This document shows, piece by piece, positions 5,508 through 10,840 of a stretch of 64,000 nucleotides of DNA (position 1 is its first letter; the number at the start of each line of letters is the position of its first letter). A model generated the notes under the pieces. It saw only the letters and a program-made list of their open reading frames with translations, did not search any database and was not told where the DNA came from. The DNA is from Escherichia phage JN02. The stretch lies in the sequence record MT782071.1. One strand, written 5' to 3'. A program made the position numbers and the translations under genes.

Positions 5508-6515
5508 TTATGATACTAATTCAATCCATGCAGGACGCAGAACATCTTGCACCATTCGGACTAATTCTTTCTTAACAAGATTCGGATTATCAGATGATGT
5601 TAATACAATACCTTCACGAGAAGTTTCTTCCAGAATATCTTGAACAGTCAATCCCATCACTTTACCAAAATCTTTTGGCGTTACAGTCCCAATCTTAGAA
5701 ATCACATTATTAACACGATTTAATGTAACATAACAAGCTAGAACATCAAGCAGGTTTTTGTCAATTTCGGTTAATGGAACCTGAGTTTTAACAGGCTTAT
5801 CAGACTTTTTCTTTTCACTGAATTTAGAGTTCTTGCACTTAATAGCTACACGAGTACCGTTTGACAGCCATTTAGGGAAACAGGGCTTCAGAACATAACC
5901 TTCTGCTGTATTATCGCCAATAACATTAGCATCAAATACACAATTATTTGCTTCTACAAGGTCTTCTGATGCAGTAGAATTATAAGCGGCTAAGACAGAA
6001 TCAAGGTCATTTGGAATCATGATAAGAGAATCAAATGTTCCACGACCAAGCATTGGTGCCATTTTAAAACCAAACGTATTACAGAAATCTTGCATTTCGT
6101 AATCACTCATATAATAAGTATCATCACTTTCCGTGTTTATGATGATATCGAACACATAAAAATCTTTTTCACCGTAGTCAACACCTTTCTGGATTCCACC
6201 ACCAGCGAATTCACCAAAGACTTGATATGACACCGGCACTGAAGTTGAAATACTTTCCATGACTTCTTGAACGGCTTTAATAGCTTTATCATACTTCTTA
6301 AGTACGATTTCATAACCATAAAAATCTTCTGCTGGAAGAATAGGGCCTGTGCGCTTGGCGCATGTGACGTTGTCACGTTCAATTATTAACGAGAAGTTGG
6401 TCCCATGGATTTTCTCACGTGCTACCCAAACACCGGTAGTCAAACCATTAGTGTAGAGTTTTTCAATAAACTTAGAGTTGTAGTGGTTTTCAAGACTGCT
6501 GTATTTCTTAAACAT
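5508..6515 (-). CDS. rnlB: RNA ligase 2 (Rnl2)
   Basis: 335 aa; adenylylation motif KIHGTN; matches T4 Rnl2 length and position. Confidence 0.93.
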
Positions 6516-7089: not shown

Positions 7090-7158
7090 ATTATTTGGTT
7101 TGTGCCATTATATACATCAATCTCAAGTTGTGTTTTGTATGCTTTAAAAACGAAGAAA

Positions 7159-7172
7159 GGGGCCGAAGCCCC
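7159..7172 (-). terminator. intrinsic terminator after hoc
   Basis: minus strand GGGGC-UUCG-GCCCC followed by a U-rich tract. Confidence 0.7.
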
Positions 7173-7178
7173 TTACGA

Positions 7179-8597
7179 TTATGGATATGTATAGATGATA
7201 CCAGTTTCTAAAGCAGTTTTATGGATGACGTATCCATTACGTGATTCTTGAACATCAACTTCCGGATAGTCTTTCATCATCTTCTGAAGTGTGTAACGAT
7301 GCAAGTAGTACTTACTATCTGGATCTTCAGTTTTCCAATCTTTACCTTCTTCAGTCATTTTTTGGATTTCATCCATAACCCACCATCCGCACCAGATGTA
7401 AGCTGAAGTACGATGTGGAAGAGGATGAACATAAGGTAGTTCACCTTCTGGTTCTGGAGCAACTTTATCGGTTACCTGAACTTGACCTTCTGCTGTAATA
7501 GTTTTGCTATCGTAATCAGTTGCAGTAATAGTTGCAGTAACTTCAATAGTTTGACTTCCAATAGATGAGGTATCAACAGTATATACATTAGTTGACCCTT
7601 CTACAGGAGAAGAATCTTTCTTCCACGAGTAAGTAATTTGTGCTGCGTCAGGTGCGCCAGTAACATTAGCAGTAAATGTAGCCGAAGCATCTTGTTGAAC
7701 ATTAATAGAAGGAGGAGTCAATGTAATCTGTGGATTCATTGTCTTCTTATTAACCGTTAATGATACTTCATTCGAAGTAACTTCCTTTGCATCATAATCT
7801 GTCGCTGTTACTTGGGCTACACACTTAATTTTTTTAACTCCACTTGTAGTTGGAGTATAGCTAAATGTAGAGTTAGTTTCTCCACCAACCTGTGAATCAT
7901 CTACATACCACTGATACGTAGCAGACGCTCCAACCGGTTGAGAAGCTAAGGCAGCAGTAAATTGAACTTGGGTTCCAATTACTCCGGCCGAAGGACTATT
8001 GGGAGTTACTGCCAACGTAGTTGTCTGTGTCTTTTTATTAACAGTCAGTGACACTTCATTAGAAGTAACGCTTAGTGCATCATAATCTGCCGCAGTTACT
8101 TGAGCTACACACTTGATTTTTTTAACTCCGCTTGTAGAAGGAGTGTAATTGAATGTAGCGGAAGTTGCTTCGCCAACAGGAGAATCATCTACATACCATT
8201 GATAAGTAGCGTTTGCGCCTGATGGCTGCGAAGCTAAAGCGGCAGTAAATTGAACTTGGGTTCCAATTACTCCAGCGTCAGGGCTATTAGGAGTTACAGC
8301 TAAGGTAGTCGTTTGTGTCTTGTTTTGAACTGTGATAGTTGTAGAAGCTTCTGCTGTTTCAGCTTCAGCTTCCGGAACTGTATTTGTTGCAACTACTTTA
8401 ATAGTCTTTTGACCTGCAGGTCCTTTTAGTACATAACTAAAAGTTGCTTCAGCTCCATCTTGTGGAACATCATCTACAGTCCAAGCATATGTAATAGTTC
8501 CACCTCCAGTTTCACCACTGGGAGTAGCAGTAAACTGCTTAGTCTCATCTATAACTCCAGTAGGTGTTTTAGGAGTTATATCAACTGTAAAAGCCAT
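7179..8597 (-). CDS. hoc: highly immunogenic outer capsid protein Hoc, with an extra tandem Ig-like domain
   Basis: 472 aa; T/S/V-rich Ig-like repeats; two ~96-aa tandem copies; T4 position between 24.3 and inh. Confidence 0.85.
   Translation of the reverse strand: MAFTVDITPKTPTGVIDETKQFTATPSGETGGGTITYAWTVDDVPQDGAEATFSYVLKGPAGQKTIKVVATNTVPEAEAETAEASTTITVQNKTQTTTLAVTPNSPDAGVIGTQVQFTAALASQPSGANATYQWYVDDSPVGEATSATFNYTPSTSGVKKIKCVAQVTAADYDALSVTSNEVSLTVNKKTQTTTLAVTPNSPSAGVIGTQVQFTAALASQPVGASATYQWYVDDSQVGGETNSTFSYTPTTSGVKKIKCVAQVTATDYDAKEVTSNEVSLTVNKKTMNPQITLTPPSINVQQDASATFTANVTGAPDAAQITYSWKKDSSPVEGSTNVYTVDTSSIGSQTIEVTATITATDYDSKTITAEGQVQVTDKVAPEPEGELPYVHPLPHRTSAYIWCGWWVMDEIQKMTEEGKDWKTEDPDSKYYLHRYTLQKMMKDYPEVDVQESRNGYVIHKTALETGIIYTYP
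7740..8320 (-). repeat. tandem duplication of a 288-bp unit inside hoc
   Basis: two adjacent 288-bp units, roughly 85-90 percent identical by eye (landmark motif at 7955 and again at 8243). Confidence 0.8.
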
Positions 8598-8606
8598 AAG
8601 TTATCC

Positions 8607-9275
8607 TTATTTTAATGTTACGAAAGAAGAATTACGAGTTTCACGAATTAGAACTGATCCATCGCGATTAATATAATAAATTAAGCTAAATAATGTTTGG
8701 TGAGCAGAAGCATGCACAAAACTAGTTGGGCGAGATTTCCAATCTGGGGTTTCGGCTATCCATTGATAAATCCACCAAGGAACAGTAACATATCCTGGGC
8801 CTTTGCCTAATTTAATGAGTGTAGGACTAAAATTTTCAGGCAGAACAAATTTTACTTCTTTATTTACCTCTGCCTCAGGCTCTTTTTCAGATTCAACAAC
8901 CTGAGTAATTGCTTCTTCGAATTTATCATGGTCGAATTCTTTTTCTTGTTCGACAACTTCTAATACTTCAACTTGTTCTGTTGGAGAATCAAACAACAGA
9001 ATAGCTTCTTCTTTAACTTCTTCGTTGGTGAAATTAACACCGTCTACATCATCTGCGGCAGTAATTAAATCAGTGATAGATAATCCATCAGTTTCAGGTA
9101 ATGGTTCATCAGCCAGTGCGTTAAGAGCTTCTTCGATATCAATAACAATATTATCGAATGATTTTGATTTCTTAACACTAATGCCAAATTGTTCCGCATA
9201 TTCAAACAGTTTAGCTTTGGCTTCCTTTTTATCAGAAAGAGCACGTAACTCTTCAATATAGTCTTTATCGATCAT
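8607..9275 (-). CDS. inh: inhibitor of prohead protease Inh
   Basis: 222 aa acidic protein at the T4 inh position; SD TGAGGAAA. Confidence 0.7.
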   Translation of the reverse strand: MIDKDYIEELRALSDKKEAKAKLFEYAEQFGISVKKSKSFDNIVIDIEEALNALADEPLPETDGLSITDLITAADDVDGVNFTNEEVKEEAILLFDSPTEQVEVLEVVEQEKEFDHDKFEEAITQVVESEKEPEAEVNKEVKFVLPENFSPTLIKLGKGPGYVTVPWWIYQWIAETPDWKSRPTSFVHASAHQTLFSLIYYINRDGSVLIRETRNSSFVTLK

Positions 9276-9288
9276 GATATTTCCTCAT

Positions 9289-9296
9289 TATAAATA
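9289..9296 (+). promoter_or_regulatory. late-type promoter TATAAATA upstream of uvsW
   Basis: exact TATAAATA 30 nt before uvsW ATG. Confidence 0.55.
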
Positions 9297-9325
9297 TAAT
9301 TATATTTATTACATGGTAATTTGAC

Positions 9326-10840
9326 ATGACTGACATTAAAGTACACTTTTATGATTTTAGTCACGTGCGCATTGAATGCGACGAAAGTACGTTTTACGAA
9401 CTTCGTGACTTTTTTAGCTTTGAAGCTGACGGGTATAAATTTAACCCAAAATATCGCTATGGGCAATGGGATGGTAGAATTCGACTTTTAGATTACAACC
9501 GTTTGTTACCATATGGACTTGTAGGACAAATAAAAAAGTTCTGTAACAATATGAGTTATTCTGTATGGATTGATCCTAAAATCTTTGAGACCGAAGACCT
9601 TACCAGGGAAGATTTTGACGCATGGCTTTCTAAACAAGAAATTTATTCGGGCAACTCCAAAATCGAACCACATTGGTATCAAAAAGATGCGGTATATGAA
9701 GGTCTAGTTAATCGTCGTCGAATTTTAAACCTTCCGACATCAGCAGGTAAATCACTAATCCAAGCACTTTTAGCTCGATACTATCTAGAGAACTATGAAG
9801 GTAAAATTCTCATTATCGTCCCTACAACAGCATTGACAACCCAGATGGCTAATGATTTTGTTGATTATCGCTTGTTTAGTCATTCGATGATTAAGAAAAT
9901 TGGCGGTGGTGCTGATAAAGCAGACAGAGCTAAAAACGACGCTCCAATTATTGTTGGCACATGGCAAACGGTAGTTAAGCAGCCTAAAGAATGGTTCTCT
10001 CAGTTCGGTATGATGATGAACGATGAATGCCACTTAGCAACAGGCAAAAGTATTTCTTCAATCATCTCAGGATTAAATAATTGCATGTTTAAATTCGGTT
10101 TATCTGGCTCATTAAGAGACGGAAAAGCCAATGTAATGCAGTACGTAGGTATGTTCGGCGAAATCTTCCGTCCTGTTAGCACGTCTAAATTAATGGAAGA
10201 CGGACAGGTAACTGAGCTTAAGATTAATAGTATTTTCCTTCGTTATCCGGACGAATTCACCGTTAAATTAAAAGGTAAAACATACCAAGAAGAAGTTAAA
10301 ATTATTACCGGACTAAAACGACGTACAAAGTGGATTGCTCAACTTTCAGTCAAATTGGCTAAGAAAGACGAGAACGCCTTTGTAATGTTTAAACACGTTA
10401 CACACGGTAAAGAAATATTTGAAGCTATTAAAGAGCTTGGATACGAAAAAGTTTATTACGTATCAGGTGAAGTTGATACTGAAACACGTAACGCGCTTAA
10501 AGTCATGGCAGAAAATGGTAAAGGCATTATTATTGTCGCATCATATGGAGTATTCTCTACTGGTATTTCAGTCAAGAATCTTCATCATGTTATTTTCGCC
10601 CATGGTGTTAAATCAAAAATTATCGTACTTCAAACCGTAGGTCGAGTGCTTCGTAAGCATGGTTCTAAAGCTGTTGCTACAGTTTGGGATCTCATCGATG
10701 ACGCAGGTGTAAAACCTAAATCATTAAATACTAAAAAGAAGTATACTCATCTTAATTACTTGTTAAAACACGGTATTGATCGTATCCAACGTTACGCTGA
10801 TGAGAAATTTAACTATGTAATGAAAACAATTAATTTATAA
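9326..10840 (+). CDS. uvsW: UvsW RNA-DNA and DNA-DNA helicase
   Basis: 504 aa; Walker A PTSAGKS; DECH box; matches T4 UvsW. Confidence 0.93.
   Translation: MTDIKVHFYDFSHVRIECDESTFYELRDFFSFEADGYKFNPKYRYGQWDGRIRLLDYNRLLPYGLVGQIKKFCNNMSYSVWIDPKIFETEDLTREDFDAWLSKQEIYSGNSKIEPHWYQKDAVYEGLVNRRRILNLPTSAGKSLIQALLARYYLENYEGKILIIVPTTALTTQMANDFVDYRLFSHSMIKKIGGGADKADRAKNDAPIIVGTWQTVVKQPKEWFSQFGMMMNDECHLATGKSISSIISGLNNCMFKFGLSGSLRDGKANVMQYVGMFGEIFRPVSTSKLMEDGQVTELKINSIFLRYPDEFTVKLKGKTYQEEVKIITGLKRRTKWIAQLSVKLAKKDENAFVMFKHVTHGKEIFEAIKELGYEKVYYVSGEVDTETRNALKVMAENGKGIIIVASYGVFSTGISVKNLHHVIFAHGVKSKIIVLQTVGRVLRKHGSKAVATVWDLIDDAGVKPKSLNTKKKYTHLNYLLKHGIDRIQRYADEKFNYVMKTINL

Follow-up and report, generated by a model that had tools for sequence, protein, structure and literature searches.

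The hoc gene of Escherichia phage JN02, which codes for the highly immunogenic outer capsid protein that forms the head decoration fibre, is longer than that of T4, and the locus raises the question of what the additional sequence consists of, how old it is, and whether it is stably kept. The window analysed here is a stretch of 64,000 nucleotides from the sequence record MT782071.1. A first-pass annotation, made from the letters alone, had ascribed the additional length to a 288-bp unit present twice in tandem and coding for two near-identical Ig-like modules, possibly a recent and recombinationally unstable duplication. Taking the evidence described below together, we consider it very probable (a probability of roughly 0.88) that the gene is the hoc of a JS09-like Mosigvirus with an old duplication of the second Ig-like domain of T4 Hoc (D2), and that the two-unit gene is a common length allele.

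Identification of hoc and its genomic position

In the list of open reading frames, hoc occupies positions 7179..8597 on the minus strand and codes for 472 amino acids followed by a stop codon. A phmmer search against the PDB matched the product to T4 Hoc (PDB 5vf3_Z, 376 aa) with an E-value of 9e-236, residues 189–472 of the window Hoc being aligned with residues 93–376 of 5vf3_Z, and the megablast matches led to the same identification. The T4 gene has 1131 bp, and the window gene is longer by exactly 288 bp (96 aa); the proposed excess of about 96 aa over T4 Hoc is thus borne out by the open reading frame, the 376-aa chain in 5vf3, and the length of the T4 gene. From the N- to the C-terminus, the protein is composed of Ig-like domain 1 (aa 1–94; 8316..8597, on the minus strand as all hoc features below), the two D2 units A (aa 95–190; 8028..8315) and B (aa 191–286; 7740..8027), a fourth Ig-like domain corresponding to domain 3 in T4 numbering (aa 287–380; 7458..7739), and a C-terminal domain for capsid binding (aa 381–472; 7182..7457), which is part of the 189–472 alignment to T4 Hoc. 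A Shine–Dalgarno sequence, AAGGA, read directly from the letters (8604..8608), lies upstream of the hoc ATG and overlaps the stop codon of inh.

The open reading frames around hoc comprise a 335-aa frame at the rnlB position (5508–6515) followed by two small frames on one side, and a 222-aa frame at the inh position (8607–9275) and a 504-aa frame at the uvsW position (9326–10840) on the other. The order rnlB–24.2–24.3–hoc–inh–uvsW agrees with that of the annotated phages JS09, moskry, and F31, from whose genes in matching order the names of the neighbours were taken. The gene therefore sits where Hoc is placed in these genomes, between inh and 24.3/24.2/rnlB and next to uvsW. The 19 kb adjoining hoc are ~98% identical to JS09-like Mosigvirus genomes (TU01, SSE1, PNJ-6, and PNJ-9), and the window is therefore from a Mosigvirus.

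Anatomy of the repeat

Tandem Repeats Finder reported a period of 288 bp with 2.0 copies at 7740–8321 (80% matches, no indels; score, 763), and a gap-free repeat finder placed the two copies at 7740–8027 and 8028–8315, that is, exactly at units B and A. Both units are in the reading frame of hoc. The presence and the coordinates of a 288-bp unit repeated in tandem within the gene are therefore confirmed by two programs and by the frame. The description of the two modules as near-identical is overstated, however, for 58 of the 288 nucleotides (79.9% identity) and 13 of the 96 amino acids (86.5% identity) differ between A and B. The two units are nevertheless far more alike than any other pair of Ig-like domains in the protein: compared with the 86.5% amino acid identity between A and B, either unit is 36–41% identical to domain 1 or domain 3 (38–41% to domain 1), and domains 1 and 3 are 29% identical to each other, so that the two units stand apart as a pair, as a duplication requires. 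Domain 1 scores merely 33 bits with a hidden Markov model (HMM) built on the D2 unit.

Each unit contains a run of seven adenines that codes for VKKI (GTT AAA AAA ATC in unit A), located at 8117..8123 in unit A and at 7829..7835 in unit B. At the position of the unit-B run, phage NHEP10 (PQ511148; locus L027, 2198–2274) has eight adenines, which puts its hoc out of frame, and the gene is annotated as a pair of overlapping 'Hoc-like' coding sequences; the additional adenine reflects either a sequencing error in the homopolymer or real slippage.

Fold, capsid-binding residues, and adhesion residues

Pfam profiles detected PKD (44.8 bits; cut-off, 23.5), Ig_3 (32.1 bits; cut-off, 30), and Ig_2 (29.3 bits; cut-off, 27) in the protein, with PKD at aa 99–158 in unit A, and Ig_3, Ig_2, and I-set at aa 289–373 in the domain that corresponds to domain 3 of T4. 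An AlphaFold model built with 39 homologues shows four consecutive β-sandwich domains with a pLDDT of about 90, the first of them over residues 1–93 and the last coinciding with the Ig_3, Ig_2, and I-set region. The C-terminal α/β domain was poorly modelled (pLDDT, 34–64), probably because the alignment is a shallow one of close relatives. In a Foldseek search of the PDB, the top matches of the model were themselves strings of four Ig domains, namely D1–D4 of ICAM-5, Ig1–4 of Dscam, and Ig1–4 of Sidekick. The N-terminal string of Ig-like domains that characterises Hoc is thus found by Pfam, by the model, and by Foldseek alike, and the same three lines of evidence support a tandem duplication of a single Ig-like domain, domain 2 of T4, which adds a fourth module.

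In T4 Hoc, the residues in contact with the major capsid protein gp23 are Tyr293, His295, His299, Arg300, Trp309, Trp310, Asp313, and Glu355–Gly359 (PMC10385173). All of them are present in the window protein with an offset of +96 (Tyr389, His391, His395, Arg396, Trp405, Trp406, Asp409, and Glu451–Ser452–Arg453–Asn454–Gly455), and all are invariant in a 39-sequence alignment except Asn454, which is nearly invariant (at least 90%). The C-terminal domain is accordingly homologous to residues 281–376 of T4 Hoc with its contact residues kept. In T4, each gp23 hexamer has one Hoc monomer at its centre, bound through this domain with the Ig string pointing outward (PMC10385173), and by analogy the window Hoc presumably occupies the centre of gp23 hexamers in the same manner. 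The T4 fibre with three Ig domains measures about 180 Å (~18 nm; PMC10385173), and that of the window phage would be longer by one Ig module, roughly 40–50 Å (4–5 nm).

Binding to E. coli surfaces has been reported for a set of domains that includes D2 (PMC10385173), and bacterial surfaces are the reported targets of the Hoc proteins of T4 and RB49. Contacts with the mucin MUC2 have been reported for Glu29 and Gly33 in domain 1 of the Hoc of PNJ-6, and for Ser183–Leu184–Thr185 in domain 2 of that of PNJ-9 (PMC11853027). Glu29 and Gly33 are present in domain 1 of the window Hoc, and the SLT motif, which corresponds to the contact in domain 2 of PNJ-9, occurs twice, at aa 183–185 and 279–281; the presence of all these residues is no proof of binding. 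Reasoning from these related proteins, the second D2 could serve as a second copy of the reported adhesive surface and could raise the reach or avidity of the fibre.

Distribution of D2 unit number among T4-like phages

To our megablast query with hoc, 656 phage records were matched, annotated as Hoc or as head outer capsid protein. In an even sample of T4-like GenBank records taken down the megablast ranking, 19 of the 52 full-length matches (~37%) aligned over 1419 bp in one piece, and the other 33 aligned over 1131 bp in two pieces. Among the best 120 protein clusters, a list that is ranked by similarity to the window Hoc and is no measure of frequency, 81 have 376–377 aa, 30 have 468–472 aa, and 9 have 567–570 aa, and the HMM of the unit found one, two, and three strong units in these three length classes, respectively. 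Lengths of 376, 472, and 568 aa therefore form a series of one, two, and three D2 units, as the comparison of Hoc lengths in relatives, suggested in the first-pass annotation, has brought out. P0114 (567 aa) and P0038 were left out of the unit consensus, their extra units being far more divergent or out of register.

The two units are orthologous by position among these phages. First-of-two units are 88% identical to one another and to first-of-three units, as against 79.5% to second-of-two units, and the nearest neighbours of D2 units mostly occupy the same position. Comparison of nucleotides with moskry and F31 gave identities of 92–94% for unit A with their unit 1 and of 97–98% for unit B with their unit 2; painting of the DNA likewise assigned unit 1 of both phages to A and unit 2 to B. 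Among one-unit genes, those of JS09, NicPhage, and AV118 have a D2 that is 95–96.5% identical to unit B, and the identity of B to domain 2 of T4 is 90.6%. Orthologues of both A and B are present in moskry, F31, IMG/VR L001, and UGKSEcP1, and the duplication is thus neither private to the lineage of the window phage nor absent from its relatives. In the GenBank record of moskry, a repeat_region is already annotated over the D2 units.

The 472-aa Hoc proteins in GenBank (moskry, MN850651; vB_Eco_F31, OP870147; mar005p1; teqskov; and KarlGJung) share with the window Hoc the same four-Ig architecture and the orthologous units A and B, with hoc being 93–97.5% identical over the full length at the nucleotide level; the window gene differs from them by a private proline-to-glutamine replacement and a conversion patch, each in both units (see below). 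The three-unit proteins of UGKSEcP1 and UGKSEcP2 (568–570 aa) belong to the same repeat family and are in the same register. Unit 1 of UGKSEcP1 is of the A type (89% nucleotide identity to unit A of the window), and its other two units resemble B (86% for unit 2 and 84% for unit 3); unlike the window Hoc, these proteins have one unit more, and their units are 75–78% identical to one another at the nucleotide level. T4 Hoc (PDB 5vf3 and 8t1x; PMC10385173) resembles the window protein in gene position, domain 1, domain 3, and the C-terminal domain, and differs in having one D2 unit instead of two. The closest genomes, with flanks ~98% identical to those of the window, are JS09, TU01, and PNJ-6 (Hoc of 376 aa), and PNJ-9 and RPN187 (283 aa); in contrast to the window, all five carry a single D2 unit that is a hybrid of A and B. 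Hoc homologues contain from 1 to 10 Ig-like domains, with 10 in that of Serratia phage Muldoon (PMC10385173); the sequences of such long fibres are distant from the window Hoc, and the shared principle is a variable number of Ig domains on a conserved capsid-binding domain. A three-domain Hoc has been described in PNJ-9 (PMC11853027), a close relative of the window phage.

Among T-even phages, hoc alleles with product lengths of 283, 376, 472, and 568 aa are in circulation, and those of 283, 376, and 472 aa are found in Mosigvirus genomes with ~98% identity to the window over the adjacent 19 kb. Examples are the hoc genes of PNJ-9 (locus L030, 762–1613), RPN187 (L031, 1001–1852), JS09 (L023, 1501–2631), and UGKSEcP1 (L029, 1501–3207). 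No GenBank record holds the exact hoc allele of the window, the best being the frameshifted gene of NHEP10 (97.5% nucleotide identity), and a look-up in the assembly collection returned no record of the exact protein.

Recombination between the units

Single-unit genes were painted on the DNA level at the 58 sites where units A and B of the window differ. Unit position 20 (Ala/Pro) was rejected as a diagnostic of A and B in the protein, and left out of the mapping of crossovers, because it is polymorphic within both classes. The hoc gene of JS09, whose parts outside D2 agree with those of the window gene to 99.3 and 98.6%, has a single unit that is of the A type at the first five sites (unit nucleotides 3–18) and of the B type thereafter (95.8% identity to B), the switch being located at unit nucleotides 18–25. 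The JS09 unit is what one would expect if A and B of a window-like gene had undergone an unequal crossover. The switch is the same in NicPhage as in JS09, the unit of AV118 switches after two sites, and that of IMG/VR L002 switches near nucleotide 42, at the start of a 32-nt stretch common to A and B. The single unit of IMG/VR L004 is of the A type almost throughout (89.6% identity to A), and in domain 2 of T4, A-type and B-type sites are mixed in a mosaic. In PNJ-9 and RPN187, one A/B hybrid unit is joined directly to the C-terminal domain without domain 3; the unit of PNJ-9 is A-like up to about unit residue 54 and B-like beyond. Whether JS09 has lost a unit or other lineages have gained one is judged by parsimony, a direction that mosaic recombination among T-even phages could blur.

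The longest run identical between A and B comprises 32 nt, at 8242..8273 in unit A and at 7954..7985 in unit B; in moskry and F31, the orthologous A unit differs over this stretch. Both copies in the window also carry a CCA-to-CAA change (Pro to Gln, giving GTQVQ), which is present in both units of no other sequence among 120 homologues and is otherwise found once each in two single-unit proteins. On this sequence evidence, the 32-nt patch is probably a short tract of intragenic gene conversion. The hybrid units and the patch point to recombination between the units on an evolutionary time scale. The surmise that the repeat is recombinationally unstable holds in this sense only, as one- and three-unit alleles and A/B hybrid units attest; frequent contraction in a phage stock would not be expected, because the longest identity between A and B is 32 nt.

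Age and origin of the duplication

Third codon positions account for 38 of the 58 differences between A and B, and the Nei–Gojobori estimates are 0.88 for dS, 0.10 for dN, and 0.12 for dN/dS. Both D2 copies are kept under purifying selection. For the parts of hoc outside D2 (domain 1, and domain 3 with the C-terminus, respectively), dS between the window and T4 is 0.28 and 0.37, that between the window and moskry or F31 is 0.06 and 0.17, and that between the window and JS09 is 0.03 and 0.04. The dS between A and B is thus 2–3 times the divergence between the window and T4 genes, and the A/B split therefore predates the divergence of these alleles across two genera. Judged from these substitution patterns, the duplication is old, with each copy conserved as protein. 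The dS of 0.88 measures how far A has diverged from B; if the gene arose from the joining of two alleles that were diverged beforehand, the tandem could be of a different age.

The last point leads to the alternative that survives best, in which unequal or illegitimate recombination between diverged A-type and B-type single-unit alleles brought the two units together, so that their divergence predates the tandem. Single-unit genes of both kinds do exist, represented by IMG/VR L004 for A and by JS09, AV118, and T4 for B; the middle cassette is of the A type in about 29 and of the B type in about 40 of the 81 single-unit proteins, and the unit boundaries share a short microhomology, NK(K)T. The same single-unit types are, however, equally well explained as deletions with crossovers close to the unit's 3′ or 5′ end, and the A–B order is common to alleles whose flanking domains differ by a dS of 0.2–0.4, which makes the arrangement old in either case. 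We regard such a joining as possible, if rather unlikely; since the tandem arrangement is shared across divergent alleles, it would alter only the story of the origin and not the identity of the feature.

An old duplication of D2 remains the preferred reading, and a recent one in situ, readily contracting and expanding in stocks, is very improbable. It is true that the units lie in exact register without indels and are much closer to each other than to the other Ig domains, that relatives carry one-unit and three-unit alleles, and that the 32-nt patch indicates an interaction between the copies. At a nucleotide identity of 80% and a dS of 0.88 with a dN/dS of 0.12, however, the copies are not near-identical at synonymous sites, and they share no perfect homology longer than 32 nt. 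Positional orthologues of A and B are 92–98% identical in other Mosigvirus phages and 84–89% in a Tequatrovirus, and the 1419-bp class makes up about a third of the T4-like records sampled. The proposal of a recent duplication is consequently not upheld, neither by the substitution rates, set against a dS of 0.28–0.37 to T4 hoc, nor by the many phages that share the two units. Tandem repeats are known to give rise to errors in assembly, and a repeat wrongly expanded in assembly was rejected as practically negligible here, since the 58 differences in 288 nucleotides let reads place the copies unambiguously, the reading frame is intact, and the orthologous two-unit structure is common to many independently sequenced phages.

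Under the favoured reading, alleles with one, two, or three D2 units (376, 472, and 568 aa) circulate commonly among Tequatrovirus and Mosigvirus phages, and the number of units changes rarely, by unequal homologous recombination between D2 units and by swaps of entire alleles when phages co-infect a cell.

Significance of the length alleles

The first-pass annotation was right that the feature exists, but the feature is an ordinary and widespread length allele of Hoc. Records of many T4-like phages already contain the four-Ig architecture, and the variability of the Ig number is published. On duplication of D2 or a four-Ig Hoc, our survey of the literature turned up nothing more specific than general remarks that the Ig number varies and the three-domain variant of PNJ-9, and the searchable literature yielded no description of the one-, two-, and three-unit series of D2, of its age, or of A/B hybrid deletion products. 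What is mildly new is hence the explicit series together with its hybrid deletion products. We tentatively propose, as an idea that we hold somewhat less probable than its negation, that the copy number of D2 is naturally polymorphic, at one, two, or three (with an additional form devoid of domain 3), and that this polymorphism may circulate by unequal recombination and allele exchange and may tune the length of the fibre and the number of adhesive surfaces to different niches. How fibre length and D2 number affect adhesion is an active question in phage-therapy work, and the hoc length alleles offer a natural series for testing the effects of both on adhesion to mucus or cells. For the engineering of Hoc display, they indicate that the presence of two D2 units is both tolerated and stable.

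Minor features of the locus

Within the part of hoc that codes for domain 3, a short tandem of 12–13 nt with 2.3 copies was found at 7512–7540 (Tandem Repeats Finder score, 51); it is probably a trivial product of repeated TATxTAT coding. Directly 3′ of the hoc stop codon, a hairpin GGGGC–TTCG–GCCCC followed by a T-rich run was read from the letters at 7141..7172 on the minus strand; with its UUCG-type loop, it resembles an intrinsic terminator and is a putative one, identified by eye. A search of the minus strand for an exact TATAAATA late promoter ahead of hoc or of the frame at the inh position found none. The only match nearby, a TATAAATA on the plus strand that resembles a T4 late promoter, lies at 9289–9296, ~30 nt ahead of the frame at the uvsW position (start, 9326), and the motif occurs 15 times in the entire window, against 6.7 expected. 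In the interval 9276–9325 of the window, as in JS09, moskry, and F31, the genes on the inh and uvsW sides are directly adjacent without an insert. In T4, the inh region is separated from the uvsW side by the homing endonuclease gene segE (locus L026, 144–761), and NicPhage has an extra unannotated open reading frame at the place of segE in T4 (locus L024, 42–785).
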